Shown: positions 728 to 53,812 of the stretch, piece by piece
Numbering within the stretch: position 1 is the first letter of the stretch
Layout: every line of letters begins with the position of its first letter
Source: Draconibacterium sp.
GTDB taxonomy: Bacteria; Bacteroidota; Bacteroidia; Bacteroidales; Prolixibacteraceae
Assembly (NCBI GenBank): GCA_041583785.1
Contig: JBFHFE010000006.1
Coordinates: 44,409-108,408, forward strand
Direction: 5' to 3'
Length of the DNA: 64,000 bases
The notes under the pieces: model-generated
Database searches by the model: none
The model's input: only the letters and a program-made list of their open reading frames with translations
What the model was told of the DNA's origin: nothing
Program-made: the position numbers and the translations under genes

Positions 728-757
728 CAAAAACCGCCCCTGCTTTCAGAGGCGGAT
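728..757 (-). terminator. Rho-independent terminator after the 789-1145 gene
   Basis: Stem ccgcc(734-738)/ggcgg(751-755). On the minus strand the hairpin is followed by a T-run (A-run 728-733 on plus). Confidence 0.6.
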
Positions 758-788: not shown

Positions 789-1145
789 TTACATAGAAGA
801 TTGTAGTTTTATCATAATATCATCTTCATTCGCTTTCACATTCAGCACTTTCGTTCCTTTCTCGTACGAAATGTAAGTAGTAACCATTTTGTATGCGCCC
901 GGTTTTACATTAGAAAATGAGAAGTTCCCGTCGAAATCGGTGTAAGTTTTGAGGTCAGTTCCTTCAATTTTAACTTCAACACCCACCAACGATTCTCCTG
1001 AAACCTGGTCGGCAACTGTTCCCGAAACAACCATTGTTGCCTCACTTTCAGTATCCGTTGTAGTTCCCGATTTTGTATCCGTTTCTTTAGCATTTACAAG
1101 TACTACTGAAAGGATAAACATTGTAGCGATTAAAATCTTTTTCAT
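789..1145 (-). CDS. Small secreted CarboxypepD_reg-like domain protein
   Basis: 118 aa with signal peptide MKKILIATMFILSVVLVNA. The segment VSGTVADQVSGESLVGVEVKIEGT..DFDGNFSFSNVKPGAYKM is a typical carboxypeptidase-regulatory-like fold signature. Confidence 0.7.
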   Translation of the reverse strand: MKKILIATMFILSVVLVNAKETDTKSGTTTDTESEATMVVSGTVADQVSGESLVGVEVKIEGTDLKTYTDFDGNFSFSNVKPGAYKMVTTYISYEKGTKVLNVKANEDDIMIKLQSSM

Positions 1146-1179
1146 ATCTATAATCTTTTGTTGTTTCTAACTTATACCG

Positions 1180-1226
1180 CAAAAATAAGCGATGTTAATT
1201 ACGGCTGAGTTACAGAATTATTACAG
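1180..1226 (-). promoter_or_regulatory. Predicted promoter: -7 box TATTTTTG plus three Pho-box-like heptamers at 11-bp phasing
   Basis: In gene orientation: CTGTAAT aatt CTGTAAC tcag CCGTAAT taacatcgct TATTTTTG. Heptamers lie at 1220-1226, 1209-1215 and 1198-1204, followed by a 10-nt gap and the -7 box at 1180-1187. Confidence 0.55.
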
Positions 1227-1241
1227 TTTAATTAAAAGAGA

Positions 1242-1700
1242 TTAATACTGTCTTTCACTTATTAGCTTGCCGTTTTCGTCGTATTTTTTCCATACTCCGG
1301 TTTTTTGCCCCTTTTTATAAGCCAGCTCGTAAAGTAAATTTCCGTAATCATTCCAGATTATCCACTTCCCGTTTTTCAGGCCACTTTTATAGCGAGCAAT
1401 CGAAATTTTTATTCCATATTCGTTGTACATCAACCACTTGCCATGCATCTGGTTGCTTTTGTACGAACGTATTTCGTTAACCCGTCCGTTAGCAAAGTAA
1501 ATAACGGCTTTCCCATGTTTCTTGCCATTTTTAATTTTCACTTCGCTTTTTATTGTTTTGTTTTCAAAAAGGCTCACATAAGTACCTGTGTATTTTTTAC
1601 CATTTTCGTAAAAAACACCATCAATTTCTTTAATATCCTGAGCTTTCGTTGCAGTGATTACCAAAGCTAAAAATCCGAATAAAACCAATAATTTTTTCAT
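1242..1700 (-). CDS. MORN-repeat-variant protein (YwqK-like), secreted
   Basis: Repeated G(K/R)xxGxxxxYxxNG motifs (NGKKHGKAVIYFANGR, QMHGKWLMYNEYG, LKNGKWIIWNDYG, QKTGVWKKYDENGK). Start chosen at MKKLLVLFGFLALVITATKAQ (signal peptide), not at the upstream ATG of the track ORF. Confidence 0.65.
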   Translation of the reverse strand: MKKLLVLFGFLALVITATKAQDIKEIDGVFYENGKKYTGTYVSLFENKTIKSEVKIKNGKKHGKAVIYFANGRVNEIRSYKSNQMHGKWLMYNEYGIKISIARYKSGLKNGKWIIWNDYGNLLYELAYKKGQKTGVWKKYDENGKLISERQY

Positions 1701-1821
1701 GTAAAAAAGATTAGAATCAAAAACACAAGAACCAAGACACCAGAAAAAATCCAAGGATAAATTCCGGACTAAAATTCATGTTCATATGCATTCTATATTG
1801 TTATTAAATTTAACTCAGAGG

Positions 1822-1850
1822 AAAGCCCCGGAATTGAATCCGGAGCTTTT
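1822..1850. terminator. Terminator-like hairpin downstream of the lipoprotein gene
   Basis: aaagccccgga-attgaa-tccggagcttt. The flanking T/A runs make it potentially bidirectional. Confidence 0.45.
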
Positions 1851-2002
1851 AAAACTGGTTTTAATACCAGCTTTAATAAACACTGCATTAAAAATTTATT
1901 TTGAAATTAATCCTTTGTACTAAACTCAAAACAGACTCTGCTAGATGCATAAAATATCCTCTTTGTTTCTTTTTCGTTCTGATGGACTGTTTATTTTAAT
2001 TT

Positions 2003-3982
2003 TTAAAATGTAGTGTCAATCCAAGTCCAGGTTGAAATGTCAATAGCATCAGCATCTTTACCTGAGTTTAAGGTATATTTTGAAGTTTCGCCTGAAATTA
2101 ATGTTGCATCAGCACTTGCTCCTGCTATATTTACATTCGACAAAGCTCCACCATCCTTCATATCCAGGTCTACATCGTAACCAGAAAGATTTAAACCGGT
2201 AATTGTAGCTCCCGACTCGGCTTTAAACTGAAGAGCTGTACCGCCTGTTGAAGAAACACAAGTAACATTTGTAAATTGTGGGTTATTGTTGGCTTTGTCG
2301 CCTTCAAATGCAGTTGAAAAATCTTCAATACTGTGAACGATGTAAGTATTAACAATGCCACCGCTCCAGCCTTCTGTCCAGTCTACAGCATCATCTTCGT
2401 TATTTTCAAGATAAATATTGGTAACACTTGCCGCTCCACCAAAAAACTCAACACCATCGTCGGAGCCATTAATTACGGCAATATTCTCAAGAGTAGTTCC
2501 CGAACCAACAGCATATAACGACACCCCGTTGTACTGCGATTCTTCGTTAATTTGAGCTCCTGTTCCTTTAATTACCAGGTAAGAGATTGAACCAGAATTG
2601 TCAGCGTCATCCGATCCTCCGTAGATAAATCCACCAACTTCGGCTTCCGAATTCTCGCCGGCACTAGTTGTTGCTTTACCACAAATGGTTAAACCACCCC
2701 AATCGCCTGCAGTGCTTAGGTCCGAAGCAATTACAACGGGCTCATCAGCAGTTCCGTTAATATAAATTTTACCTCCCATTAATACGGCAATATAAACATC
2801 AGTACCACCTGCATCGGCATGGATTTTTGTACCGGCCGGGATGGTTAAAGAAGCACCATCCTGAACAATGTACGAAGAGGTTAAACGGTACGAGTTTGAG
2901 GCATCTAAAGTAACATCCGTAGTTACACTTCCACTCAACGAAATAACTTCTACCAGTTCAACATCAATCCATGTCCAGTCGCTGGGGTCAACTGTGGCCG
3001 ATTTATTGTAACTATCAGTTGGGTCGGCAGATTCACCTTCAATAATAACATTATCGAGCGAACCATCATCTTTCATATCGATACTGGTAGTATAGCCTGT
3101 TAACGAAAGCCCTGTAATGGTTGCACCCGATTCAGCTTTAAATTGCAAAGCAGTACCACCGGTAGTAGAAACTGCAGTTAAGTTATAAATTTGAGGATTG
3201 TTGTTTACTTTATCGCCTTCAACAACTGTTGAAAAGTCTTCGATAGTATGCTCAACGTAAGCATTGGTAATTGTTCCGCTCCAACCCTCAGTCCAGTCAA
3301 TTGCATCGTCTTCGTTATTTTGCAGAAAAACATTAGTTGCAGAAACTGTTCCACCAAAGAACTCAACTCCATCATCAGAACCGTTGATAACCGCAATGTT
3401 TTCAACAGTAGTACCCGAACCAACTGCATAAAATGAAATACCGTTATACTGCGATTCTTCATTAATTTGCGCACCTGTTCCTTTAATAACCAGGTAAGTA
3501 ACAGACCCCGAACTGTCGGTATCATCGCTTCCTCCATAAATAAATCCACCCACTTCGGCTTCGGCATCAGTACCGGCTGTGGTGGTAGCCTTACCACAAA
3601 TAGTTAATCCGCCCCAATCGCCAGGCTCTGCAGCATTAGAAGACATAATAACCGGGCTGCTCGCTGTTCCATTAATATTAATTGTTCCACCCATTAGCAC
3701 GGCAATGTAAACATCAGTACCACCATCGTCTGCAATAATGTTCGTACCGGCCGGAATGGTTAAGGTAATGCCATCAGGAACAATAAAAGAACCTGTAAGC
3801 TGATAACTAATTGACGCATCGAGAGTATAACTCTCGGTAAGGGTTCCGTTCAAGATCCCATCTTCTATGTTTTCAATAACTTCTTCTTGCTCAATAACAA
3901 CAGGATCATCATCCTCGCAACTAGTAAAAACTGTTATTGCCAATAAAGCAAGACCTAAAACTTTTAAAAATGCTCGTTTCAT
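2003..3982 (-). CDS. Lipoprotein of unknown function with an internal tandem duplication (2 x ~300 aa, probably beta-helix-like)
   Basis: Lipobox MKRAFLKVLGLALLAITVFTSC. Two long homologous halves share the motifs GGTDVYIAVLMGG, GDWGGLTICGKATT, GGFIYGGSDD, INGSDDGVEFFGG, NEDDA(I/V)DWTEGWSG and TGGTALQFKAESGATITGL. It lies 35 nt downstream of the TBDR gene, so it is likely in the same operon. Confidence 0.8.
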   Translation of the reverse strand: MKRAFLKVLGLALLAITVFTSCEDDDPVVIEQEEVIENIEDGILNGTLTESYTLDASISYQLTGSFIVPDGITLTIPAGTNIIADDGGTDVYIAVLMGGTININGTASSPVIMSSNAAEPGDWGGLTICGKATTTAGTDAEAEVGGFIYGGSDDTDSSGSVTYLVIKGTGAQINEESQYNGISFYAVGSGTTVENIAVINGSDDGVEFFGGTVSATNVFLQNNEDDAIDWTEGWSGTITNAYVEHTIEDFSTVVEGDKVNNNPQIYNLTAVSTTGGTALQFKAESGATITGLSLTGYTTSIDMKDDGSLDNVIIEGESADPTDSYNKSATVDPSDWTWIDVELVEVISLSGSVTTDVTLDASNSYRLTSSYIVQDGASLTIPAGTKIHADAGGTDVYIAVLMGGKIYINGTADEPVVIASDLSTAGDWGGLTICGKATTSAGENSEAEVGGFIYGGSDDADNSGSISYLVIKGTGAQINEESQYNGVSLYAVGSGTTLENIAVINGSDDGVEFFGGAASVTNIYLENNEDDAVDWTEGWSGGIVNTYIVHSIEDFSTAFEGDKANNNPQFTNVTCVSSTGGTALQFKAESGATITGLNLSGYDVDLDMKDGGALSNVNIAGASADATLISGETSKYTLNSGKDADAIDISTWTWIDTTF

Positions 3983-4017
3983 TTTTGTAGATTTTTAAAT
4001 AATAAGTTGTGATATTT

Positions 4018-6756
4018 CTAATTCAGACTAATTTTTAAACTTAATTTCAGGCGAATACCTTTCTTATAAGAGTTAACTACCTCGGTTGTAGCTTCACCTG
4101 ACAAAGGCTCAATTACCTGCGTTTGTTTTATTTCCGGGTTCAATAGGTTTTTCCCGGAAAATTTGACAGAAACACGTTCCGAAAGTTTTTTGCTCACAAT
4201 AAGGTCGAGCGTTGTAAAACCTTTTTCAATTATTTCGTTGTTGAATAGCGTAGCACTATTGTCGTAGTCCTCCGGAGCACCCAGGGCATAAATCTTATCC
4301 GAAGAGTAGTTCCCGATAATGCTGGCTACAAACGCTTTTTCTTTATTATCCGAGAAAGTAAGCGCTGCGTTAGCTATAAAGCCCGCCGCACCTTGCAATT
4401 CGGTTTCCGTTTTACTATTGTATTGGAATTCATCCAGCAAATCCTGGTTAAACCACATTTTGGTAGCGTTTACAACCATATCTAAACCTGGCATACCATC
4501 GTGCGTGGCTTTTATTAATCCCAGGCGGGTTTCAAACTCAACTCCGTAAACATCGGCTCTGTTGCCCGTATTTTCGTATATAAAGTAGCCCGACGAGCCA
4601 CGTGTTTGTGCCAGGTTAATGGGATCGTTAATCATTTTATAAAAACCAGTTAACGAAACTAATTCGTTGCGGGCCGGGAACATTTCCCATTTTAAATCGA
4701 AGTTGTAGTTTTCAGAATTTACCAGGTCGGGGTTACCTTTAATAACACGGCCAGTTTGCGAAACATACTCAAAGGGAGCCAACTCTTTAAACTCGGGCAA
4801 GGTTACAGTTTTACTTGCTGCCAACCGAACAGAATTCTTTTCATTCAGTTGGTATTTCAGGTTCAATGCCGGTAATATCTTTGAATAATCGTTGGAGAGA
4901 CTTCCGGTGCGACCAACATAATTAGCTACGTCCCAGTTCGATTCAATATTATCTTTTTCGAAACGCAAGCCAACACTTCCCGAAAAGTTATTACGCTCGA
5001 ACAAAGCATTGGCATAACCGGCAAAAACAACCAGAGAAGCATCGTACAAGTCCTCTGTTTTTTCACGAATATCCAAAGTTCCATCGTTATAAAGCGTAGC
5101 ATCGAGCAAGGCCTCATCTAAATTATCAATCGATTCAACCTGCACACCTTTGGCCTTTACGCCAACAGCAAGAGAAGAAAATTCGCGTTGTTTTTTACGA
5201 AAATTTGCTCCAACATTAACTTTCAGCTTTTTATTTTTTTCATCAATTACTTTAAATTCATCTTTCAGGTAGCCGTTAATTTCGTTGTCACCAATACTCT
5301 GCGACGACTTACGTTGCTGGTAATCGCCAACGTGTGCAAACTGTACCGCATTCTCATCTAAAATATTTACTTCATTTCGTATACGGTTGGGTTCATCGGC
5401 GCTCACCCAGTTGTAAGCAATGGCCCAGTTAAGCTGGTTTTTCTCGTTAATTTTGTGCGAGCCCAGCATTTGGTTTATATATATTTTGGTTTCTTTTAAA
5501 TTTTGGTCGCGCACAAAAGCTCCTTCTTCCTGAGGATCCTGGTCGCGCACATAACCTTCGCCATTTCTTCCTTGCTCGTACAGCTGGTCAATAGTTTTAT
5601 AGATAACCATACTGTTAAAATTCAGGCTATGCCCTTTCTCAATATCATAAACCAGATTTAACAAGCCGGTGGTATTTATTTCAGTCGAATAGGTTTCAGC
5701 ATCAGTAAAATAACTGCTTAAACTATTCATTCGGTACTTTTGATAAACGCCTGTATGATAATCGTAATCGCGTGCGTGCGAAAGTGTAGCAAAAACCGAA
5801 AAATCCCTGTCGAGCAGCTTGAACTTCTTGCCTCCTAAAAAGGATAAGCCCTTATCAACTGGCAGGCTTTGTTCTTCGGTATTCCAACTTTGTAATTCAA
5901 TGGCATTTATAGTAGCATACGGTTGCTTATAAAAGCCAAAGCTTACATCATTAATATTTTGACTTGCTTTAAAATTGCCAAAAATACCCGTGCTTAAAAC
6001 ATTTGTTGAAGAACCAACAGAAGCTTCAAATTCTATCTTTTCAGAATACGTTTTCGAACCAATATTAACTGCTCCCGAAGACTGGTCTCCATAAGTTTCA
6101 ACCGCAAAAGTTTTGTTAATTCCCACATTACCAATTATGTCGGAGGCAAACAGATTTAAATCGATATTCTTCTTCTCCACATCATCCGAAGGAATGGGCA
6201 AACCATTCATTGTAGTGCTTAAGTACCTATCGCCAAGGCCTCGGATATATACATCGCCTGAACCTTCGTTTTTTGTAACCCCCGATATTTTTGAAGTGGC
6301 CGCAGCAGCATCAGAAACGCCCAGGCTTGACATACGTTTCGACCCAATACTCTCTTTAATTCCCGAAGCATTTTTCTGGTCGATTAACAACATGGCTTCC
6401 GATTCGCGCCTGGCCTTAGCCACAACCTGGACTCCTTCAATTTCGAGCGTTGCAGGAGCAAGCCTTACAAGTAATTCTGTTTCCAGGCCAGCCTTTACTT
6501 CAATCTGAGACTCTTGCGTATCGTACGAAATAAATGAAACCAACAGCGTGTAGTTTCCTGGTTGTACCTTTGAGATGACATAGTTTCCATCAAAATCGGT
6601 AATTGTTCCTTGAGTAGTTCCTTTAATTAATACGGTAGTCCCGATAAGCGACTCGTTTGTTTTTGCATCGGTTACAGTTCCTTTTATTGTCCCTGTTTGT
6701 GCTGTAACCATCATTACCTGGATTAGCAAAAAAATGCTAATAAATAACTGTTTCAT
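4018..6756 (-). CDS. TonB-dependent receptor with an N-terminal CarboxypepD_reg domain
   Basis: 912 aa with a signal peptide. Contains a CarboxypepD_reg motif (GTVTDAKTNESLIGTTVLIKGT..DFDGNY) and a plug motif (DVYIRGLGDRYLSTTMNGLPIPS), followed by a long beta-barrel region. Confidence 0.85.
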   Translation of the reverse strand: MKQLFISIFLLIQVMMVTAQTGTIKGTVTDAKTNESLIGTTVLIKGTTQGTITDFDGNYVISKVQPGNYTLLVSFISYDTQESQIEVKAGLETELLVRLAPATLEIEGVQVVAKARRESEAMLLIDQKNASGIKESIGSKRMSSLGVSDAAAATSKISGVTKNEGSGDVYIRGLGDRYLSTTMNGLPIPSDDVEKKNIDLNLFASDIIGNVGINKTFAVETYGDQSSGAVNIGSKTYSEKIEFEASVGSSTNVLSTGIFGNFKASQNINDVSFGFYKQPYATINAIELQSWNTEEQSLPVDKGLSFLGGKKFKLLDRDFSVFATLSHARDYDYHTGVYQKYRMNSLSSYFTDAETYSTEINTTGLLNLVYDIEKGHSLNFNSMVIYKTIDQLYEQGRNGEGYVRDQDPQEEGAFVRDQNLKETKIYINQMLGSHKINEKNQLNWAIAYNWVSADEPNRIRNEVNILDENAVQFAHVGDYQQRKSSQSIGDNEINGYLKDEFKVIDEKNKKLKVNVGANFRKKQREFSSLAVGVKAKGVQVESIDNLDEALLDATLYNDGTLDIREKTEDLYDASLVVFAGYANALFERNNFSGSVGLRFEKDNIESNWDVANYVGRTGSLSNDYSKILPALNLKYQLNEKNSVRLAASKTVTLPEFKELAPFEYVSQTGRVIKGNPDLVNSENYNFDLKWEMFPARNELVSLTGFYKMINDPINLAQTRGSSGYFIYENTGNRADVYGVEFETRLGLIKATHDGMPGLDMVVNATKMWFNQDLLDEFQYNSKTETELQGAAGFIANAALTFSDNKEKAFVASIIGNYSSDKIYALGAPEDYDNSATLFNNEIIEKGFTTLDLIVSKKLSERVSVKFSGKNLLNPEIKQTQVIEPLSGEATTEVVNSYKKGIRLKLSLKISLN

Positions 6757-6784
6757 ATATCTTAAAAGTTGCAGTGTTTATCAA

Positions 6785-6947
6785 GAAGTTGTTTAAAGCT
6801 AAATTGAAAAACTGCGAGCAAAATCTTGATTCCATTGGCTTTAGCTAATTTTTCGTTCATAGCTTTGGCTATGCAAGAAAAATGGAGCTTCGCCACTGAA
6901 AATCAATATGTCACTCTCGAAATTCCCATTCAACATTAAACAACTTC
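6785..6947. repeat. Long imperfect hairpin element (~163 nt), diverged member of the R1 family, inside the predicted TBDR 5' UTR
   Basis: Terminal inverted repeats gaagttgtttaa (6785-6796) and ttaaacaacttc (6936-6947). Apex CATAGC-tttg-GCTATG. Its length and central GGCTTTA...TAGCTnTnGCTATGC core match the copies at 15999-16160 and 60990-61150. Confidence 0.6.
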
Positions 6948-6967
6948 AATCATTTGATTTACGATGA

Positions 6968-7025
6968 CAAAGCAAGCTCTTAAATATTACAGGTAAATTA
7001 CAGTGTGTTTAAACTTGTATTACAT
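6968..7025 (-). promoter_or_regulatory. Predicted promoter of the TBDR-lipoprotein operon: -7-like TTGCTTTG plus phased Pho-box-like heptamers
   Basis: In gene orientation: ATGTAAT(7025-7019) ..weak GTTTAAA.. CTGTAAT(7003-6997) ttac CTGTAAT(6992-6986), a 10-nt gap, then TTGCTTTG(6975-6968). The geometry is the same as at 1180-1226 and 15662-15708. Confidence 0.5.
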
Positions 7026-7356
7026 TGTTTTAATGGATTTGTAATGAAGTTGGGGTTGGGGTAATTGTTTTGTAATAATGGGAAGTAGAATATTGAATTA
7101 CCCTGTATTTGTTACAAAATATCAAGTCAGAATAAGGTTAATAAGGTTCTGTCGTACATTAACTAATTTGGCTACTAAGGTTGAAGAAAACAGATAAGGT
7201 TGATTTGATTTTCATAGCATTAACAACCTTTTGTACTTCAACATATTCCATTTGAATGAGTAACAACCTTAATAGCAAAGAAACAAGCATTACACCCCAA
7301 CCTTAGTAACTTAGACGATAAATAAGCAACAGAAATAAGGTTAAACGGAAGAATAC

Positions 7357-7387
7357 AAAAGCCCCTGACCAAAGGTCAAAGGCTTTT
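7357..7387 (-). terminator. Terminator after the histidine kinase gene
   Basis: aaaagcccctgacc-aaa-ggtcaaaggctttt hairpin, 24 nt past the stop codon. Confidence 0.6.
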
Positions 7388-7410: not shown

Positions 7411-9183
7411 TTATTTTTTCGAAAGGGTAAATAAAAATTCTATTCCTCCCTGGGGTTTGTTTCTGGCCGAAATTTCACCCTTATGTAACTGAATTGCATT
7501 TTTTACAATAGACAATCCCAGTCCGGTTCCTCCCATCTCGCGGGTGCGCCCCGAGTCAATTCGGTAAAAGCGTTCAAAGATGCGTTTCAAATGCTCTTCG
7601 GGAATACCCACGCCAGTATCGGAATAACTAAAGTAATGGTACTTTTTGTCTTCCATATAATTCCTTATTTCAATTTTAATATTCTCGCCGGCATAGTTTA
7701 TTGTATTTTCAATTAAGTTCTGAAATACCGACGAAAGCAAGGAATCGTTTCCTTTGACAAAAATTTCGTTATCGATATTTAGTTTACATTTAATATTTTT
7801 TGATGCTAAGCGGCTTTCCAAATTCTCGATAACATCAGACACCAGGTATTTAATATTCACCTGTTTAAATTCGAAAAGCTCACCAGCATCTTCGATGTTA
7901 TTTAGTAAGGAAATATCGTTGAGCAGCAGATTTAAACGATCGGTCTGAGCACTTGCCCTTTCAATAAAATACTTTCGTTTTTCTGCGTCGATATCGGGAT
8001 TAGCCATTAAGGTTTCAATATACCCCTTTATTGACGCCAATGGCGTTTTCAACTCGTGAGCAATGTTTGATGTTAATTGTTGTTTTAGCAAGCGCCTTTT
8101 TTCGGGCCGGGTAATATCGGTTATCAGAATCTCGAAACTCTTATCGGCGAAGACAATACAAAGCACTTTAAAGTAACTGTCGTTTTTACTAATTGTAAAC
8201 TCCAATTGAGGCAATTCGCTACTTTGAAACTCCAGATCTTTGGCAAGATTCTTATTCAAAAAACTATTAATCTTTTTAAATTCAGGAATGGTAAAAATAT
8301 TCTGTGCCGAAATAGTAGAGGTATCGGAGATAATACTTACATACTGAATAAAATGGCTGTTTGCCAACATTTTCTCCTTGTTGGGTTTAAAAAAACCAAT
8401 CCCTTCGTGCAGAATATTCATGTGGTTCGACAACCTGTCTTTTTCCAGCGCCACATTATTTTTTGCTTTTCGCAGCTTGTTATAGATCTTTACAATCTGC
8501 GCACCAATTTCGCCCAATTCATTATCCGGAAACTCGCTTTCGCGTTCGTCAATCTCCTCATTTCGTCCGGCTTTAATAGCAAAGTCTTTCAACTTGGTAA
8601 TAGAAATCGACAAACGACGCGTTAATTCATTTATTACCAACCATATAACAACGAATATGGCAATTATAAAAAATATGAAAAACTTTTCGGCCTGCAAAAA
8701 ATGTTTCACGTCCACATCGTAAATCATGGCCGTACGTACAAAATAATCGCCATAATTTCGGGCATAATAATAAAAATCCTGGTTGGTTGTTTCCGAATAC
8801 CTGATGTTAGAACCTTCGTCGGAATAGAGTGCTTTTTGAATTTCGGGGCGCTCGAAATGATTTTCCATGCCCGCATAATCGAACACAAAACTGTCGAACA
8901 AAACAACTCCTTTTTTATCGACCACCGTTACCCGAATATTTTTTTGAGGGATAAGATATTTGAGGGTATCGGCTTTACTGAAATCCCTGTTCTGCATTAA
9001 TTTGTAAAACTCAATATAATTATGAGCAGTTTCGGTAACATTCTCAAGGGTATTTTCCAGCTGAGAGGTTTTATAATTCTTTTCGCGTTGAAGCTGGAAT
9101 AATAAAATTGCAACGGTAAAAACGAAAAATACAGCTATAAAATAATAAAATATTTTTCTTCTGAATGTTTGTTGTATCGGCAC
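7411..9183 (-). CDS. Sensor histidine kinase (PhoR-like by context)
   Basis: 590 aa with two TM segments. H-box NIAHELKTPLASIKGY and HATPase_c motifs (GVGIPEEHLKRIFERFYR, GGTGLGLSIVKNA). It is the last gene of the pst-phoU-RR string. Confidence 0.8.
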   Translation of the reverse strand: MPIQQTFRRKIFYYFIAVFFVFTVAILLFQLQREKNYKTSQLENTLENVTETAHNYIEFYKLMQNRDFSKADTLKYLIPQKNIRVTVVDKKGVVLFDSFVFDYAGMENHFERPEIQKALYSDEGSNIRYSETTNQDFYYYARNYGDYFVRTAMIYDVDVKHFLQAEKFFIFFIIAIFVVIWLVINELTRRLSISITKLKDFAIKAGRNEEIDERESEFPDNELGEIGAQIVKIYNKLRKAKNNVALEKDRLSNHMNILHEGIGFFKPNKEKMLANSHFIQYVSIISDTSTISAQNIFTIPEFKKINSFLNKNLAKDLEFQSSELPQLEFTISKNDSYFKVLCIVFADKSFEILITDITRPEKRRLLKQQLTSNIAHELKTPLASIKGYIETLMANPDIDAEKRKYFIERASAQTDRLNLLLNDISLLNNIEDAGELFEFKQVNIKYLVSDVIENLESRLASKNIKCKLNIDNEIFVKGNDSLLSSVFQNLIENTINYAGENIKIEIRNYMEDKKYHYFSYSDTGVGIPEEHLKRIFERFYRIDSGRTREMGGTGLGLSIVKNAIQLHKGEISARNKPQGGIEFLFTLSKK

Positions 9184-9314: not shown

Positions 9315-9998
9315 CTACTCTTTAAAGGCATAACCATAGCCCGATTTTCCTACAAGATATTTTCCATATTCGCCAATTTTCTTCCGAAGGCGAGCAATGT
9401 TAACATCCACATTTCTTTCGGTAACAATTACATCATCGCTCCAAATACGATTAATAATTTCTTCGCGACTAATGTACTGGCCCTTGTATTTTAGCAACAA
9501 AGCGATAATCTCAAATTCCTTTCGCGTAAGATTAACCTGCTCGTTATCAACAGCAACCGACTTGCTGTTTATGTCAACTTCAAATCCGTTAATTTTAAAT
9601 ACTTTCGAAGAACCAGCTTCCTGTTTGCCACGCTTTAGCACAGCTTTAATTCGCGCAACCACTTCTTTAATCGAAAAAGGTTTGGAAATATAGTCGTCGC
9701 CGCCCACATTAAAACCAGTAAGAATATCGTTTTCAGCTGTTTTGGCGGTCATAAAAATTATGGGAACCGAAAGCTGCAATTCTCTCCTGATTTTAGACGC
9801 CATTTTGTAGCCCGACATTTCGCCCATCATTACATCTAACAAAATCAGGTCGAACTCATCGAGCGACTTTTTTAAAGCTTGTTCGGCCGAGTGGGCAGTA
9901 TCGGTATCAAATCCTTCGCTTGAAAGATTAAACTCTAAAATTTCGCATAAGTCTTTTTCGTCGTCAACAATTAATATTTTCGGAATTGAATAGGCCAT
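9315..9998 (-). CDS. OmpR/PhoB-family response regulator
   Basis: REC domain (ILIVDDEKD...ILLDVMMGEMSG...AKT) plus a winged-helix Trans_reg_C domain (LTRKEFEIIALL...GYGYAF). Directly downstream of phoU. Confidence 0.85.
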   Translation of the reverse strand: MAYSIPKILIVDDEKDLCEILEFNLSSEGFDTDTAHSAEQALKKSLDEFDLILLDVMMGEMSGYKMASKIRRELQLSVPIIFMTAKTAENDILTGFNVGGDDYISKPFSIKEVVARIKAVLKRGKQEAGSSKVFKINGFEVDINSKSVAVDNEQVNLTRKEFEIIALLLKYKGQYISREEIINRIWSDDVIVTERNVDVNIARLRKKIGEYGKYLVGKSGYGYAFKE

Positions 9999-10003
9999 TT
10001 ATT

Positions 10004-10690
10004 TTATTCTACTTTTTTTGCGTGTCTAATGTCTTTTCCCTCTATGGAATAAATTGCAGCTTCAGCAATATTTGTAGCATGGTCGGCAATACGTTCAATA
10101 TTTGAAACCATACCAGTCATATTCATAAAATTGGTGAGCGTTTCCTTGTCTTCGTCAGAAGTGCTACTTTTTTTAATCGCTTTTTTCAGCATTTTATGGT
10201 TAATCTCGTTCACTGCCGAATCGTTCTTTATTGTCCAAACGGCAAACTCTCTGTCGTCGTTTGTAAAAGCCAATAAGGCTTTATTTACCATGTTAGATCC
10301 TTGCAAAAGCATGTTCGAAATTACATCCAGCAATTTAGCAAATACAGCTGAACCTCTAACCTTTTTAATGTGAAACAGAGTATCAACCACCATATCGCCA
10401 ACTCGTTCGAGGCTAATAATTATGCGGTAACAAGCCATTAACTTTCGAATATCGGAAGCAACCGGCTGATACAAGGCAATGGTATTTACAATCTTATCGC
10501 TGATTTTAACTTCCAGTTTATCCAGTTTTTTCTCGTTATTCAGAATTTCCGTAAAGAAATGCTCCGGAATTTCTTTCTCATCTGAAGAAATCACTTTCTC
10601 CAATAAATCGAGTTGAGTGAGTACCAGGTTGGCAAAACTTTCGAAATCGGATAGGATATTATTTATTGCTTCATCTTTTTTTGAAATCAT
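10004..10690 (-). CDS. phoU: Phosphate signalling complex protein PhoU
   Basis: 228 aa with two PhoU repeats (LERVGDMVVD and IERIADHATNIAE). Follows pstB. Confidence 0.85.
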   Translation of the reverse strand: MISKKDEAINNILSDFESFANLVLTQLDLLEKVISSDEKEIPEHFFTEILNNEKKLDKLEVKISDKIVNTIALYQPVASDIRKLMACYRIIISLERVGDMVVDTLFHIKKVRGSAVFAKLLDVISNMLLQGSNMVNKALLAFTNDDREFAVWTIKNDSAVNEINHKMLKKAIKKSSTSDEDKETLTNFMNMTGMVSNIERIADHATNIAEAAIYSIEGKDIRHAKKVE

Positions 10691-10720
10691 AATCTTTCGA
10701 ATTTAAATGAAATAAAAAAA

Positions 10721-11503
10721 TTAACCGAATTTTCCTGTTAAGTATTCTTCGGTACGGCGGTCTCTGGGGTTAGTAAACATATCTTCGGTTTTACCATATT
10801 CCACTAGTTCGCCCAGGTACATAAACATCGAATAATCGGAGATTCGTGCTGCTTGCGACATGTTATGTGTCACCATTAAAATCGAATAATTCTCCTTTAA
10901 CTTCACCAACAAATCTTCTATTTTTGAGGTTGCCACCGGGTCGAGCGCAGAAGTTGGTTCGTCAAGTAAAATTACTTCGGGGTCGAAAGCCAGTGCGCGG
11001 GCAATACATAGTCGTTGCTGCTGTCCTCCGGAAAGGAAACTTCCCTTTTTATGAAGAGTGTCTTTCACCTCATCCCACAGGGTAACATCGGTTAACGAAC
11101 GTTCTACAATGTCGTCACGCTCGTTTTTCTTTAAACGAATTCCGTTCAATTTATATCCGGCAATAACATTGTCGTAAATGCTCATTGTTGGAAACGGGTT
11201 TGGACGTTGAAAAACCATACCCACTTTTCTTCTTAACTGAATAGTTGGCATATCGGTAATGTCTTTCCCATTCAAAATCAAATTACCTTTTGTTTCAATG
11301 TTTTCGTACAATTCGTGCATGCGGTTTATGGCGCGCAACATCGTACTTTTTCCACAACCCGACGGCCCCATAATTGCAGTTACGGCATTCCGTTTTACAT
11401 CCGCCGAAACATTATCCACGGCATTTTTCCCTTTATCGTACGAAACACACAAGTTGCGAATAGAGAGTACGGGATTTTTTATTTTTACTGAATTATCGTT
11501 CAT
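10721..11503 (-). CDS. pstB: Phosphate ABC transporter ATP-binding protein PstB
   Basis: Walker A GPSGCGKST, signature LSGGQQQRLCIARA, Walker B ILLDEPTSALD. Start set at MNDNSVKIKN to avoid overlapping the pstA stop. Confidence 0.9.
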   Translation of the reverse strand: MNDNSVKIKNPVLSIRNLCVSYDKGKNAVDNVSADVKRNAVTAIMGPSGCGKSTMLRAINRMHELYENIETKGNLILNGKDITDMPTIQLRRKVGMVFQRPNPFPTMSIYDNVIAGYKLNGIRLKKNERDDIVERSLTDVTLWDEVKDTLHKKGSFLSGGQQQRLCIARALAFDPEVILLDEPTSALDPVATSKIEDLLVKLKENYSILMVTHNMSQAARISDYSMFMYLGELVEYGKTEDMFTNPRDRRTEEYLTGKFG

Positions 11504-11516
11504 TTTTACTTTTATT

Positions 11517-12401
11517 CTATTTGGTGGAGGCAGCAATTCGTTTCGAAACTAAATTAAGCGTTAATACCATCGCCATAAGCAATAACGACGAACTCCATAT
11601 TAAATCCACCATGTTCGGGTCGTTATAAAATTCCCAAATTAACAGCGGAACGGCACTTGTTGGTTTTGTAATATCGAGGTTTACAATTGTACTGCCCAAA
11701 GCTGTTAACATGAGCGGGGCAGTTTCACCCAGAACCCTCGAAATACCCAGTAAAATACCAGTAAGCAAGCCACTAAAACTGGTTGGAATTAGCACCCTAA
11801 GTATTACTTTGTAATACGGCACTCCCAGCGCCAATGCTGCTTCTTTAATCGTTTGCGGAATCATTTTCAGCGTTTCTTCGGTTGAGCGCACAATCATTGG
11901 CAACATCATTATCGACAAGGAAACACTACCAGCTAGTGCCGAAAACCCACTGGTTATTGGCTTTACAATCCACATGTAAGCAATTAGCCCTAAAACAATT
12001 GATGGTACACCTTGTAAAATATCGGAAATATTCCGGACTAAATTTGCCAGAAATTTCCCGGGGTTTTCATACAAATAAATGCCAGTAATAACACCCACCG
12101 GAATGGCAATTACCGAAGCCAGCACCACCATTAAAAGTGTTCCTGTTATTCCGTTGGCAATACCTCCCGGAATCAATTCACCATTACTTAAGGCTGTCAT
12201 TGCTTCGAAAGTATCGGGCGGCGTTTTAAGTATAAAGTCGAAACTTATCTGCCTTATTCCTTTGGCGATGAGCTCGTAAATAATTAATACAATAGGCGAA
12301 ATGGTAACCAGCGAGAGCAGTGCAACCAATCCCTTAACAAACTTGTCTTTAAACGTTCTTCGTCCAAGGTTATCAACCATTATTTTTTCAGGAGTACTCA
12401 T
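11517..12401 (-). CDS. pstA: Phosphate ABC transporter permease PstA
   Basis: 294 aa polytopic permease with an EAA-like loop (KEAALALGVPYYKVILRV). Sits between pstC and pstB. Confidence 0.85.
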   Translation of the reverse strand: MSTPEKIMVDNLGRRTFKDKFVKGLVALLSLVTISPIVLIIYELIAKGIRQISFDFILKTPPDTFEAMTALSNGELIPGGIANGITGTLLMVVLASVIAIPVGVITGIYLYENPGKFLANLVRNISDILQGVPSIVLGLIAYMWIVKPITSGFSALAGSVSLSIMMLPMIVRSTEETLKMIPQTIKEAALALGVPYYKVILRVLIPTSFSGLLTGILLGISRVLGETAPLMLTALGSTIVNLDITKPTSAVPLLIWEFYNDPNMVDLIWSSSLLLMAMVLTLNLVSKRIAASTK

Positions 12402-13253
12402 TTAGGCCATTTTTTTAATGATAAATTTCCCAATTGCATTTATAATCCCGGTCATTAGAAACAGCAACAGCCCAATAGCAATTAAAGCACTAAGTTTTAG
12501 CCCTTCGGCTTCGCCAAACTGATTGGCAATTACCGATGCCATGGTATTTCCTGTACTAAAAAAACCGTCAGGGATTACATTTGAGTTTCCTATTAACATA
12601 GTTACGGCCATGGTTTCGCCAAGAGCCCGCCCAAACGATAATATATAACCCGCAACAATTCCCGACCGCGCCGACGGCACAATTACATTTGAGATAACTT
12701 CCAGTTTTGTTGCACCAAGCGAATAAGCTGCTTCTTTTAGTTCGTTCGGAACCATTGCAATTATTTCGTTACTCAAAGACGTTGCATAAGGAATAATCAT
12801 AATTGCCAAAATAATACTGGCCGTAAAAACGCCGAATCCCTGGTTGGGTAAACCCATATCAATTAGAACCGGTCGAAGCACATAAAAGCCCCAAAGTCCA
12901 TAAACTATTGATGGAATTCCAGCCAGCAGATCGACCATTGTTCCCAGCACTTTAGCCAGCCTTGTCCCGCGGTAATATTCACCAATAAAAAGCGACGCCG
13001 AAAACGAAAGAGGTAAACTAATTAATAAAGCTGCCACAGCTGTTATTATAGTACCCGTAATAAAAGGCAATGCTCCGTAATTCTCTTTGCCATCGGTGGG
13101 ATTCCAGGTAGATGAGTAAATAAACTTTAAGCCAAAGGTTTTAAATGCCGGTATTGCCCCTTCAACCAAAGAATAAATCATTCCTCCTGCAACAAAGAGT
13201 ATTACTAGGGAAAACAGAAGAAGTACTGCTTTTGTTATTTTATCGCTGTTCAT
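12402..13253 (-). CDS. pstC: Phosphate ABC transporter permease PstC
   Basis: 283 aa permease with loop KEAAYSLGATKLEVISNV. Its stop abuts the pstA start codon. Confidence 0.85.
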   Translation of the reverse strand: MNSDKITKAVLLLFSLVILFVAGGMIYSLVEGAIPAFKTFGLKFIYSSTWNPTDGKENYGALPFITGTIITAVAALLISLPLSFSASLFIGEYYRGTRLAKVLGTMVDLLAGIPSIVYGLWGFYVLRPVLIDMGLPNQGFGVFTASIILAIMIIPYATSLSNEIIAMVPNELKEAAYSLGATKLEVISNVIVPSARSGIVAGYILSFGRALGETMAVTMLIGNSNVIPDGFFSTGNTMASVIANQFGEAEGLKLSALIAIGLLLFLMTGIINAIGKFIIKKMA

Positions 13254-13348
13254 CGATTAGACAAATAGAATTTTAATTGTGAGTTGTGAGATAAAAACTG
13301 ATACCAGAGGGATTCTGTGTTTATAGAAAAAATAGTGTGGGATTTGTT

Positions 13349-13366
13349 CGACCCCGGCCGGGGTCG
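13349..13366. promoter_or_regulatory. Perfect 18-nt GC-rich palindrome in the pstS-pstC spacer
   Basis: cgaccccgg|ccggggtcg. It is the only strong GC-rich hairpin in the 166-nt spacer. Confidence 0.6.
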
Positions 13367-13419
13367 CATTACCTTTCTAATTATAATTAGTATAAACACT
13401 AAATCCTCTGGCTTTATTC

Positions 13420-14493
13420 TTATTTCAACAACGGAGCTCCATCGAAAGTAACCGAGCGCAAAATTGCTGTTGCTTTTTCAGCTGCTGCTGCCGGAAGTGG
13501 AGCATAGTGCACTTTTTCGGCTTGCCCTTGTGCATCGGCGCTCACTAACCAATCGAGGAACGAAACTGTTGCCAGAGCCTGTTCTTTTGAACGCCCATTG
13601 TAGTTCTGCTCTTTGTACAGAATAATCCATGTAAATCCGCTAATGGGATAGGCTTCCGGATCGGTGGAGTTGGTAAGCATAATTCGTGTATCAGCAGGAA
13701 TTTCGCCTTTGGCAGCCGCACTAACCGAAGCAATGGATGGCACAATGTAATTACCCGAACTGTTTTGAACTTTCGCAGTCTGAATTTTCTGTGCGAAAGC
13801 GTATTCCGAGCCTATGTAACCAATGGCACCTTCGGTTTGTTTAATCGTTCCTGCTACACCCGGATTTCCTTTAGCTCCCATACCCACCGGCCACTGCAAG
13901 GATTTTCCAACACCCACTTTTTCAGCCCAAACCGAACTAACCTTAGTCATGTAGTCGCTAAAAATATAGGTTGTACCACTGCCATCTGAACGATGCACAA
14001 AAGTTATGTCCAGATCAGGAAGAGCTGCTCCCGCATTGTTTTCTTTTATTGCAGCATCGTTCCATTTGGTAATTTCGCCCATAAAGATTTTCTCCAACAG
14101 GGCATTCGATAGTTTAAGATCGTCAACACCGGGAAGGTTATAAGCAATTACTACTGCGCCTAATACCGTTGGAATATGAACCACTTCTGCTGGCATAGCA
14201 GCTAATTTTTCGTCGTTCAAATACGCATCGGTTGCTCCAAAGTCGACTACCTTATCGGTTAAACTGCGAATACCCCCGCCCGAGCCTATCCCGCCATAGG
14301 TTAAGAGGGTTCCGTTTTGCGAGGTGTAAGCTTTAAAAACCATATTGTAGTAAGGCATCGGAAAAGTTGCTCCCGCTGCCGTTAAAGTCACTTTTCTGGC
14401 ACTTGCAGACTTTTCGCTACTTTCTTTTTTCGAAGAATTTGAACAAGCTCCCAGGAAAAAAACTGCTAAAATTATTACTGCTAATTGTTTCAT
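13420..14493 (-). CDS. pstS: Phosphate-binding lipoprotein PstS
   Basis: 357 aa with lipobox VFFLGACS. Contains PBP-like motifs (TAAGATFPMPYY, GGIGSGGGI, HRSDGSGTT). Confidence 0.9.
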   Translation of the reverse strand: MKQLAVIILAVFFLGACSNSSKKESSEKSASARKVTLTAAGATFPMPYYNMVFKAYTSQNGTLLTYGGIGSGGGIRSLTDKVVDFGATDAYLNDEKLAAMPAEVVHIPTVLGAVVIAYNLPGVDDLKLSNALLEKIFMGEITKWNDAAIKENNAGAALPDLDITFVHRSDGSGTTYIFSDYMTKVSSVWAEKVGVGKSLQWPVGMGAKGNPGVAGTIKQTEGAIGYIGSEYAFAQKIQTAKVQNSSGNYIVPSIASVSAAAKGEIPADTRIMLTNSTDPEAYPISGFTWIILYKEQNYNGRSKEQALATVSFLDWLVSADAQGQAEKVHYAPLPAAAAEKATAILRSVTFDGAPLLK

Positions 14494-14589
14494 CTTATTA
14501 AAAATGTTAGTTTTCTAAGGTATAAGATAGAACTCGCATGATTTTAAGAAACCCCCGATGTGTGAATATTTCTCTCATGCTCGTTTCAT
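14494..14589 (-). promoter_or_regulatory. Conserved leader cassette R2, copy 1 (abuts the pstS ATG)
   Basis: Aligns along its full length with 28387-28481 (minus) and 59767-59859 (plus). See findings. Confidence 0.7.
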
Positions 14590-14634
14590 TTATACGTTTT
14601 TAAAATTTGTTTATCTTAGTTCTAAAGTATTCTC

Positions 14635-15624
14635 CTAAAATTTCAATTCCACACTTAAGTATAGATAAGTTGTATTTTCGGCACTACTTAAATCAGGATT
14701 CCAGTACCGTATATTTGGTGTAATTTTTACTCCTTTAACAGGAGAATATTCAAATCCAGCCAACAATAATTGCCCATCTGAATCTATATTCCAGGCTTCG
14801 CTTTCGCCAGTCAATTTTTTAGAATTTAAATCGTCGAAACGCGCGAACAACTTCATATTGCTTTTGGGTTTATACCAGGAATAAATCGATGTGCCGTACA
14901 TATTCTGCCCATCAACCATATCGTTATTCCACTGGTAATTATATTCTCCGGCCAAGGTAAATTTGCCGTTTGTATAGGCCAGCAATGTGGCCAGCGATTT
15001 TTGCCTCACATCGTCGCCCATTTGATCGACATAAACACGGGCAAGAACATTTTTAACCGGTGTAATGGTTGTTCCCAGGGCAAATCGGACAAGACTATCG
15101 CCTTGCAGTTTTTTATATCCTTCGCCGTTGGTAATCGAAAAATCGGCGCTAATAAAGTCGGCAAATGTATAATCAACACTAAGTCCAAGGTCGGCACTGG
15201 AGTTAAATTTATACTCATCCTGGTAGGATTTCATCATGTAACGATTTCCCCAAAGTTTTTCGGAAACTTTAAACTGGGTTGTAGAAATCATTCCGAAAAC
15301 TGTTTTGAAACTACCCGTTTCATATTGCAAGTAGGCATTTTTTAAAAACGCGGCTAATTCGTAGGCTCCATCATCTTTAGGATTTCCAACGTCGAAAACA
15401 ACTTTGGCATAAAACTCTTTACTGAAATTGTATTCGTAACCCAGGTATGCACGAGTATTTTCAAATTCAGGCATTGTTTCGCCGTTGCTAATAGCAGTAT
15501 GAAAATTTGAGAAAATCAAGGCTAGCGGTTTACCATTTGGCGTAAATTCTTCTGACGATTCCTGACTAAAACCCATTGTGATGGCTCCTAGAACCAAGAA
15601 CAACAGTAATGACATTTTATTCAT
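14635..15624 (-). CDS. Outer-membrane beta-barrel porin (phosphate-porin-like by context)
   Basis: 329 aa with a signal peptide, an alternating beta-strand pattern and a C-terminal ...YLYLSVELKF. It is the first gene of the pst string. Confidence 0.65.
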   Translation of the reverse strand: MNKMSLLLFLVLGAITMGFSQESSEEFTPNGKPLALIFSNFHTAISNGETMPEFENTRAYLGYEYNFSKEFYAKVVFDVGNPKDDGAYELAAFLKNAYLQYETGSFKTVFGMISTTQFKVSEKLWGNRYMMKSYQDEYKFNSSADLGLSVDYTFADFISADFSITNGEGYKKLQGDSLVRFALGTTITPVKNVLARVYVDQMGDDVRQKSLATLLAYTNGKFTLAGEYNYQWNNDMVDGQNMYGTSIYSWYKPKSNMKLFARFDDLNSKKLTGESEAWNIDSDGQLLLAGFEYSPVKGVKITPNIRYWNPDLSSAENTTYLYLSVELKF

Positions 15625-15661: not shown

Positions 15662-15708
15662 CAAAAGTGAGTTAATGCTATTACATGCGAATTACAAAAA
15701 TGTTACAA
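15662..15708 (-). promoter_or_regulatory. Predicted Pho-regulated promoter of the porin-pst operon
   Basis: In gene orientation: TTGTAAC attt TTGTAAT tcgc ATGTAAT agcattaact CACTTTTG. Heptamers at 15702-15708, 15691-15697 and 15680-15686, then a 10-nt gap and a -7-like box at 15662-15669, 38 nt before the ATG. Confidence 0.6.
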
Positions 15709-18540: not shown

Positions 18541-18685
18541 GTTTAATTGTTTTGTAATATTACTAAAACATTAACTAACCATCAAATTACTATTAATCAA
18601 TAAGCAGCACAATTTTTATACTTTTGTTATTATTTCTTTTGACGAAAATTCATCTCTTTATCGATTAATAAATATAGTTTAAAAT

Positions 18686-19726: not shown

Positions 19727-19817
19727 TCGGCTAACTTTGTGTTTATAATAAGTTTAAAGAAGAGTTAATTGTTCTTTAATAATTAGCACCTAACTTTAGC
19801 ACAATATTATTAGTATC

Positions 19818-53443: not shown

Positions 53444-53812
53444 ATGGGAGCAATGAAAAAACTAACACGAAAAGAAGAGGAGTTGATGAAAATCCTCTGG
53501 AAACTGGAAAAAGCTTTTGTTAAAGATATTGTGGAATTGTACCCCGACCCTAAACCGCATTACAATACCATCTCTTCGTTGGTGCGTTTACTGCAAGACA
53601 AAGGCGTAATTGGCTTTACGCAATACGGAAACACCTACCAATATTTTCCATTGATTTCGAAAGAAGAGTACCGTCGTTCGTTTATGGGCGAAATTGTGAG
53701 CGACTACTTCGACAATTCGTACAAAAGTGCAGTGGCCTTTTTTGTAAAGGAGAAAAACCTCTCGGACGAAGAAATTGACGAGCTGGTAAAACTTATTAAA
53801 GACAAAAAGTAA
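53444..53812 (+). CDS. BlaI/MecI/CopY family transcriptional repressor
   Basis: 122 aa winged-helix (LTRKEEELMKILWKLEKAFVKDIVE...). Followed by an overlapping M56 peptidase gene. Confidence 0.8.
   Translation: MGAMKKLTRKEEELMKILWKLEKAFVKDIVELYPDPKPHYNTISSLVRLLQDKGVIGFTQYGNTYQYFPLISKEEYRRSFMGEIVSDYFDNSYKSAVAFFVKEKNLSDEEIDELVKLIKDKK

Follow-up and report, generated by a model that had tools for sequence, protein, structure and literature searches.

The pair of a TonB-dependent transporter and a surface lipoprotein analyzed in this study has been published three times, and it represents an already described system rather than a new kind. We examined it in a stretch of 64,000 nucleotides from Draconibacterium sp. 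(assembly GCA_041583785.1, contig JBFHFE010000006.1, positions 44,409 to 108,408), hereafter the window. In Flavobacterium johnsoniae, Fjoh_0543 (PhoR), Fjoh_0544 (PhoB), Fjoh_0545 (a TonB-dependent transporter, TBDT, with pf07715, pf13715 and pf14905) and Fjoh_0546 (a lipoprotein of pectin-lyase fold, named FII) constitute PUSIV or Pus4, the "PhoBR operon" (PMC8115612). Fjoh_0545 and Fjoh_0546 are up by log2 8-10 on phosphate depletion but not on nitrogen or iron limitation, their proteins are abundant in the exoproteome, and the FI, FII and FIII proteins were related by Lidbury et al. 2021 to ElpS of Caulobacter (PMC8115612). ElpS (CC0170) is made solely under phosphate starvation and is surface exposed, and its gene adjoins that of the receptor CC0171 (Le Blastier et al. 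2010, PMC2996285). It is released via a type II-secretion-dependent protease, and the purified protein shows no phosphatase activity on p-nitrophenyl phosphate (pNPP) (PMC2996285). The PhoB-dependent induction of Fjoh_0545/0546 and elpS by phosphate starvation has been published (PMC8115612, PMC2996285, PMC11208175). In Bacteroides thetaiotaomicron, BT4056 was proposed to be the "lid" of the non-SusC transporter BT4055; AlphaFold-Multimer places it on the outer face of BT4055, and pairs of this type are adjacent in 621 genera (Price, Deutschbauer & Arkin, bioRxiv 10.1101/2023.03.17.533168). BT4056 has 40% identity to Fjoh_0546 and is distant kin of ElpS (bioRxiv 10.1101/2023.03.17.533168).

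The corresponding genes of the window are located on its minus strand. A non-SusC TonB-dependent transporter of 912 aa (4018-6756), recognized from Pfam, NCBIfam and related loci, is followed after exactly 35 nt by a surface-type lipoprotein of 659 aa (2003-3982), which contains two tandem beta-helix modules (PF28492, Beta_helix_4). An earlier note, made from the sequence alone, had described the locus correctly in all particulars, and its coordinates, strand and spacing for the two genes were reproduced exactly. Its term "uncharacterised" holds for the substrate and the mechanism, but not for the family, which has already been described.

The lipoprotein very likely belongs to the family of ElpS, FII (Fjoh_0546) and BT4056, that is, PF28492. 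This family name comes solely from precomputed annotations, which assign PF28492 (Beta_helix_4) to the window lipoprotein and to each homologue listed here. Each of the window modules has 39-42% identity (E 1e-44) to P0549, a PF28492 protein of 403 aa from B. thetaiotaomicron whose gene is located directly after that of a non-SusC transporter; judging from the species and the gene context, we infer that P0549 is BT4056. The orthologue in Bacteroides finegoldii is 39% identical to the window lipoprotein. A Sphingomonas homologue of 542 aa displays 30-31% identity to the two modules (E 2e-19 and 4e-17), and its locus, in which the gene is followed by a receptor gene and gspN/D/E, has the published ElpS layout. 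The links to Fjoh_0546 and CC0170 were drawn from gene layout and from the papers rather than from the sequences of these two proteins. Homologues of the lipoprotein number in the thousands, with 19,115 clusters (50% identity) at E <= 1e-3 among 1.84 billion cluster representatives. Single-sequence and profile searches with the lipoprotein gave no matches in the local Pfam or PDB sequence sets, nor did its family profile match any PDB sequence, and nothing meaningful was found in NCBIfam, where the sole match scored 18.6 bits against a cut-off of 135 bits.

The lipobox of the protein (...FTSC22) is followed by the acidic residues EDDD, and the family consensus at this position is SC-x-D-x-DD. 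An acidic stretch after the cysteine is typical of Bacteroidota lipoproteins that are exported to the surface. By this acidic export-type signal after Cys22 the protein is classed as a predicted surface-type lipoprotein. A SusD-like lipoprotein was considered and rejected, as neither PF07980 nor PF14322 is matched and the predicted fold is an all-beta helix.

Module 1 (residues ~40-343, 2954-3865) was delimited by a single-module model and self-alignment, and module 2 (residues ~344-659, 2006-2953) keeps all the conserved motif residues. The two align at 69% identity over 308 residues with an E value of 1e-151, which is far past chance. AlphaFold2 predicts two right-handed beta-helices for the full lipoprotein with a predicted local distance difference test score (pLDDT) of 89, and beta-strand rungs nearly throughout for the single module with pLDDT 89 and a predicted template modelling score (pTM) of 0.90. 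Thus the earlier note was borne out on the two copies of a ~300-aa module, on its guess of a parallel beta-helix and on the absence of SusD-like features. Foldseek searches with both the two-module and the one-module models returned exclusively generic beta-helix enzymes or phage tailspikes. The top PDB matches of the module are PL3 pectate lyases (probability 1.0, ~10% identity), with a template modelling (TM) score of 0.6 by target and 0.40-0.42 by query. We took these matches as fold-level and drew no function from them. Assignment to the PL3 pectate lyases or other beta-helix carbohydrate-active enzymes by sequence was rejected, given the empty Pfam and PDB sequence and profile searches and the ~10% structural identity.

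The motifs of module 1 are GDWGG, YGGSDDxDSSG, DDGVEFFGG, EDDAIDWTEGW and VEGD. An alignment of members from Bacteroidota, Gammaproteobacteria and Alphaproteobacteria reveals an invariant set consisting of G-[DQ]-WGG, GG..D-x-SG, DD-[GA]-[IV]-E-x-FGG, DD-x-x-D...G-[WY]-x-G and [IV]-[ED]-x-[DN]. It includes six to eight invariant acidic residues on three successive rungs, all of which are kept in both window modules. By profile search, the number of modules per family protein ranges from 1 to 17. The lipoprotein is better conserved than the transporter in nearly all loci (for example 77 vs 62%, 65 vs 53% and 55 vs 45%), which fits a chemically invariant ligand. Orthology can be followed module by module within Marinilabiliales and is blurred in Flavobacteriaceae. 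Two giant proteins, P0253 (4910 aa) and P0370 (4806 aa), hold 14-17 matched module stretches each, so very large, repetitive surface proteins make use of the beta-helix unit as well.

The transporter consists of a signal peptide, CarbopepD_reg_2, Plug and TonB barrel/OMP_b-brl_3 domains (PF13715, PF07715, PF00593 and PF14905), and EGVQVVA is a probable TonB box. Membership in SusC/RagA was rejected, since the TIGR04056 score is 70 bits against a cut-off of 368 bits and the match is confined to the N-terminus; the score for TIGR01782 is also under the cut-off. Over its full length, the transporter has 30% identity to the partner transporter in Bacteroides (the B. finegoldii orthologue) and 24% to that in Pseudoalteromonas, and the partner transporters are homologous among Bacteroidota, Gammaproteobacteria and Alphaproteobacteria.

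The window was scanned for Pho boxes with the pattern CTGTAAT-N4-CTGTAAT, allowing <=3 mismatches, and compared with 100 shuffles. A total of 14 matches were found against 7.0 +/- 2.6 in shuffled sequence, and none of the 100 shuffles reached 14. Seven of the 14 form 11-bp-phased arrays on the minus strand, at the transporter gene (6986-7014, three heptamers), at the CarbopepD_reg mini-protein gene downstream of the lipoprotein (1198-1237, four heptamers) and at the porin-like and pst genes (15680-15708, three heptamers). Four further matches are also located in the island: two on the opposite strand upstream of the transporter, one overlapping its array, and a weaker one at 18541-18558 in the interval between the genes for the PiT transporter and a second, short kinase. 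The transporter array reads GTTTAAA-CACA-CTGTAAT-TTAC-CTGTAAT in 11-bp phase and is followed 10 nt on by TTGCTTTG, a -7-like box, while the mini-protein array is followed 9 nt on by the -7-like box TATTTTTG. All three promoters share a layout of three to four phased heptamers, a spacer of 9-10 nt and a TAnnTTTG-like box, which is the -7 promoter element of Bacteroidota. As the -7-like box sits 9-10 nt after the last heptamer, the Pho box would take the place of the upstream promoter element. The same replacement is seen in the Pho promoters of Escherichia coli.

In the two closest genomes (L004 and L005), the transporter array and its -7-like box are both kept. Across all fetched loci, box-like repeats are enriched 5.4-fold in the 400 nt upstream of the transporter genes, and in Flavobacteriaceae they are often found at -80 to -100. 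The Pho-box-like promoters noticed earlier therefore stand, as the arrays are enriched over shuffles and share the layout of the pst promoter. The CTGTAAT arrays are predicted to be PhoB-binding Pho boxes, and the transporter-lipoprotein pair is probably under Pho control. Scans for sigma-70 promoters and terminators did no better than on shuffled sequence, which for sigma-70 is expected because the promoters are of Bacteroidota type. No RNA family of Rfam was matched in the whole window, including the long leader of the transporter gene.

In this 5' leader, downstream of the Pho-box promoter and upstream of the start codon, lies a near-palindromic insertion of ~170 nt (6776-6955, minus strand), which as RNA folds much more stably than shuffled sequence (z-score -5.5). 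The leaders of L004 and L005, although they align elsewhere, lack the insertion, and it is unique in the window; it may represent a small mobile hairpin or a structural element of the leader. Further upstream, the region 7120-7350, which separates the transporter promoter from the phoR terminator (7357-7387), is filled with AACCTTA / TAAGGTT repeats, nine or more in the two orientations, including four of the nine exact copies of the 8-mer AACCTTAT in the window. The intergenic region of L004 and L005 is just 220 nt and lacks this stretch, which may be an array of regulator binding sites or a remnant repeat.

Gene neighborhoods were sampled in 79 genome loci, of which the 48 long ones (>=17 kb) were used for adjacency counts. 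A homologous transporter gene is located directly upstream of the lipoprotein gene in all 48, and likewise in every other locus whose sequence reaches that far. Phosphate genes (PhoBR-like, PiT or pst) occur within 10 kb of the pair in 35 of the 48. A PhoR/PhoB-like system is found beside the pair in 21, and in 16 of them the regulator gene ends <800 nt upstream of the transporter; the order kinase, regulator, transporter, lipoprotein is seen in about 16-21 flavobacterial loci. A PiT-type transporter is encoded within 10 kb in 15 of the 48 and in 20 of all fetched loci, from several families, and a Porin_O_P (OprP-type) gene together with PiT is located beside the pair in ten flavobacterial loci. 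The pst genes are found within 10 kb in four of the long loci, and full pstSCAB-phoU-phoBR adjacency is limited to L004 and L005, the closest loci from Prolixibacteraceae. Accordingly, a fixed link of the pair to pst genes was rejected. Synteny with pho and pst genes in relatives thus holds for phosphate genes of one kind or another in most long loci, whereas direct adjacency to pst does not extend beyond L004 and L005. As these associations vary in order and orientation among Marinilabiliales, other Bacteroidales and Flavobacteriaceae, they are not simply inherited synteny. Among the annotated neighbor families, no phosphoesterase recurs beside the pair, and the recurring neighbors handle inorganic phosphate; no glycoside hydrolase or lyase recurs either.

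Two small proteins accompany the pair. The MORN_2-repeat secreted protein (1242-1754, minus strand, Pfam PF07661) probably starts at the ATG at 1700, giving a signal peptide MKKLLVLFGF..., and MORN_2 proteins are found with the pair in 27 related loci. The stand-alone CarbopepD_reg_2 mini-protein of 118 aa (789-1145, minus strand, Pfam) has a signal peptide and 34% identity to the N-terminal domain of the transporter. Such mini-proteins accompany the pair in 13 loci (clusters 21 and 23). Their genes are located upstream of the pair in Flavobacteriaceae and downstream in Marinilabiliales, and the products, as in L011 (6439-6828) and six similar loci, are predicted to be periplasmic or secreted. 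The MORN-variant protein and the Pho-box-preceded mini-protein of the earlier note were both recovered, the latter by its domain match and its own array of four heptamers. Because MORN_2 and CarbopepD_reg proteins recur beside the pair, the proposed module is a real conserved unit. A terminator-like hairpin (734-755, minus strand) is located at the end of the cluster.

The Pho boxes, the conserved pair with its phosphate neighbors, the conserved small proteins and the induced homologues support the earlier proposal of a phosphate-starvation acquisition module of the outer membrane that is not of SusCD type. The phosphorus source may be organic or polymeric, as the earlier note suggested, but the genes that recur nearby are for inorganic phosphate, not for phosphoesters. 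On balance the evidence leans toward uptake of a phosphorus compound by the pair. We favor, by a narrower preference, a Pho-controlled TonB-dependent uptake unit in which an anionic phosphorus compound is first bound by the beta-helix lipoprotein on the surface and then transferred to the transporter, with Pst and PiT completing its uptake. At low phosphate, PhoB would bind the phased CTGTAAT boxes and turn on the transporter-lipoprotein operon, as phosphate starvation does in the homologues, and would separately turn on the mini-protein gene. The lipoprotein would be exported to the cell surface, where its homologue ElpS is exposed, and each module would present an acidic groove with DDG-E, DD-x-x-D and E-x-D on successive rungs. 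This groove may hold divalent cations and through them capture the anionic ligand. Positioned on the outer face of the transporter, the lipoprotein would hand over the ligand, which would be moved into the periplasm on TonB energy; there, phosphate would be set free or go straight to PstS-PstCAB and PiT, whose genes are adjacent. Binding rather than catalysis by the lipoprotein is slightly preferred from its sequence features: we read it as a multivalent binder, not an enzyme, because family proteins have 1-17 modules and the motifs are intact in both window modules.

Several points weigh against this uptake model. A ligand, metal or activity has been demonstrated for no member of the family, and paired aspartates on successive rungs suit polysaccharide hydrolases and lyases too. 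The "groove" itself was deduced from sequence register. Few high-confidence contacts between BT4055 and BT4056 were found by Price et al. (bioRxiv 10.1101/2023.03.17.533168), the Caulobacter receptor gene was reported to be constitutive and deletion of elpS had no phosphatase phenotype (PMC2996285), and a 2026 Pus preprint calls the function of Pus3 and Pus4 unpredictable (10.64898/2026.09.03.749221). Moreover, in B. thetaiotaomicron, Tenacibaculum and Aquimarina the pair is flanked by genes other than phosphate genes.

The alternative that survives best, although it is unlikely, is that the lipoprotein is a surface beta-helix lyase or hydrolase cutting an anionic phosphorus-rich polymer, such as teichoic acid, phosphoglycan, extracellular DNA or cell-wall-bound organic phosphorus, with the transporter importing the fragments for periplasmic phosphatases. 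Its top structural matches are the Ca2+-dependent PL3 pectate lyases and other beta-helix carbohydrate-active enzymes, and the DD, DD-x-x-D and E-x-D residues of successive rungs do not vary between Proteobacteria and Bacteroidota; however, these fold matches are generic (query-normalized TM <=0.42, ~10% identity), and neither CAZy-type Pfam families nor solved structures are matched by sequence. Lidbury et al. modelled FI and FII on polygalacturonase and proposed organic phosphorus of the plant cell wall (PMC8115612), which together with the high exoproteome abundance of the proteins would suit an enzyme. Tandem arrays of 2-17 fully conserved modules, in contrast, are unusual for catalytic domains, the annotated neighbor families include no recurring phosphoesterase, and purified ElpS was inactive on pNPP (PMC2996285).

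A doubtful possibility is that the pair is an energized outer-membrane route for inorganic phosphorus, namely orthophosphate, pyrophosphate or polyphosphate, probably as Ca/Mg complexes. The tandem modules would then be traps for cation-bridged phosphate or polyphosphate, and the transporter would feed PstS and PiT directly. Mildly in its favor, the recurring neighbors are PstSCAB-PhoU, PiT, an OprP-type porin and PhoBR, not phosphoesterases, and the lipoprotein is unusually conserved, its conserved residues are acidic and its modules are freely multiplied. If true, it would be the first TonB-dependent system for inorganic phosphate, and in Bacteroidota and many Proteobacteria it would correspond in function to the PhoE/OprP porins.

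It is improbable that the pair supplies a metal cofactor (Ca2+, Fe3+, Zn2+ or Mn2+) to load the induced phosphatases of PhoX, PhoA/PafA and PhoD types. The conserved residues are nearly all acidic, but no known metal-binding motif was detected. Overproduction of ElpS raised extracellular alkaline phosphatase while ElpS itself is not a phosphatase (PMC2996285), whereas the F. johnsoniae genes are repressed under iron limitation and respond to phosphate alone (PMC8115612). Metal-related genes are found beside the pair in two genera, MntR, ZnuABC and a second receptor in Tenacibaculum and an HMA-domain protein just downstream in Polaribacter, yet the commonest neighbors are phosphate sensors and transporters rather than metal transporters. 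An ordinary glycan (pectin-like) uptake locus that is located beside the pst island by chance in this genome has hardly any probability, since, against the pectin-lyase-like fold and the AraC regulator and PAS kinase that replace phosphate genes at the Bacteroides pair, the transporter gene has its own Pho boxes that are kept in relatives, phosphate genes lie within 10 kb in 35/48 loci that span different orders and arrangements, no recurring annotated neighbor family is a glycoside hydrolase or lyase, and the homologues are induced by phosphate depletion (PMC8115612, PMC2996285).

The cluster is bordered by the pst/phoU/PiT island that the earlier note had recognized, in which phoR, phoB, phoU, pstB, pstA, pstC, pstS and PHO4/PiT were identified. 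The phoR (7411-9183; NF053855, 678 bits) and phoB (9315-9998; NF053854, 321 bits) genes on the minus strand score over the cut-offs of Bacteroidota-type equivalogs, and phoR is of the long Bacteroidales type. Further upstream on this strand are phoU, pstB, pstA, pstC, pstS and a porin-like first gene (10004-15624, minus strand, Pfam/NCBIfam). The latter is an open reading frame (ORF) of 329 aa (14635-15624, minus strand), the first after the Pho-box promoter and just before pstS; its product carries a signal peptide, ends in F and resembles a beta-barrel in sequence. No Pfam family is matched and the match to a flavobacterial Porin_O_P neighbor is weak (E 0.012), but the product is probably a phosphate porin of undescribed type. 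The PiT/PHO4-type phosphate transporter of 755 aa (16228-18495, minus strand) has a long extra C-terminal region with a weak DcpS_C/HIT-like match. Adjoining its gene, and 9 kb from the canonical phoR-phoB, is a second, short PhoR/PhoB-like two-component system (18686-20519, plus strand) with a kinase of 346 aa, which clusters with the type that is divergent beside the transporter gene in Flavobacteriaceae. Both Pho-type sensor pairs are therefore present in one island. A PAP2 phosphatase is also encoded beyond the porin-like and pst genes, and none of the larger annotated ORFs in the 20-64 kb part of the window looks phosphate-related. An unrelated protein of 1010 aa (53812-56844, plus strand) is an unusual fusion of a BlaR1-type M56 peptidase/sensor with CarbopepD_reg and plug-like segments.

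Other arrangements of the pair were observed among the relatives. In Tenacibaculum (L001 and L018/L023/L026/L064) it adjoins genes for an MntR-type repressor, a ZnuA/ABC metal importer and a second receptor, and in Polaribacter (L019-L021, L025) an HMA (heavy-metal-associated) domain gene is located just downstream; these contexts give hints of a metal connection. Aquimarina loci (L022, 2432-6612; L024, L034, L048, L049 and L050) encode, a few kb from the main pair, a paralogous transporter and a one-module lipoprotein of 442 aa, with 31% and 36-37% identity, respectively, to the window proteins. The database label "multidrug transporter" on such lipoproteins looks like a propagated mis-annotation. 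On the second replicon of Pseudoalteromonas donghaensis (L082, 1163-13376), the gene of a three-module member of 1366 aa precedes the receptor gene, and this pair has a dedicated energy-transduction cluster, as it is preceded by an ExbB-ExbB-ExbD-TonB-TPR set. In B. finegoldii NZ_OY725943.1 (L081, 8001-9254), the lipoprotein gene is split into two unannotated ORFs of 201 and 212 aa, probably as an assembly or frameshift artefact. This sequence is labelled a 35-kb plasmid, yet it carries ordinary chromosomal genes.

The locus rediscovers a described system and reveals no new one. The family is very large (19,115 clusters, pairs in 621 genera) and among the most strongly induced and most abundant phosphate-starvation proteins in the tested organisms, ElpS having been described in 2010. 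What the window adds is a clean marine two-module example set in a full Pho island, where the Pho-box promoters can be read and two accessory proteins are conserved; this addition is useful but incremental. It also points to particular residues and ligands worth testing. The identity of the substrate would fill a gap in phosphorus acquisition by Bacteroidota and many Proteobacteria, in the ocean, in soil and in the gut.

Compared with the known systems, the locus is closest in plan to Pus4. The window transporter matches all three Pfam families listed for Fjoh_0545 (Plug, CarbopepD_reg_2 and OMP_b-brl_3), and both loci have a pectin-lyase-fold lipoprotein directly downstream of the transporter, PhoBR alongside, membership (probable for the window) in the Pho regulon and nearby an OprP-type porin, for which the window has a candidate; the fetched marine flavobacterial loci have the gene order of Fjoh_0543-0546. 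The window differs in the two tandem modules of its lipoprotein, in the long Bacteroidales type of its PhoR, in the whole pstSCAB-phoU operon adjoining the cluster and in the MORN_2 and CarbopepD_reg mini-proteins. With BT4055/BT4056 it shares the Pfam family, the gene order and the spacing, and the transporters are ~30% identical (via the B. finegoldii orthologue), but the Bacteroides lipoprotein is a single-module protein (403 aa) and its neighbors are an AraC regulator and a PAS/GAF kinase instead of phosphate genes. ElpS is likewise a phosphate-starvation lipoprotein beside a TonB-dependent receptor. Its likeness was tested through the Sphingomonas homologue, which shares the motifs G-x-WGG, DDGIE-FGG and DD-x-x-D. 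In Proteobacteria, however, the lipoprotein gene is placed before the receptor gene, and ElpS, which is built of one module plus a long N-terminal extension, is released by a protease and shows low identity. The SusC/SusD systems, including PusCD, which is also under Pho control, follow a like logic of a TonB-dependent transporter with CarbopepD_reg and an adjacent surface lipoprotein. Nevertheless, the window transporter fails the SusC model, its lipoprotein is an all-beta helix whereas SusD is alpha-helical and TPR-like, and here the lipoprotein is better conserved than its transporter. With the PL3 pectate lyases (e.g. C. bescii 3T9G) the right-handed parallel beta-helix is held in common, a resemblance at the level of the fold only.

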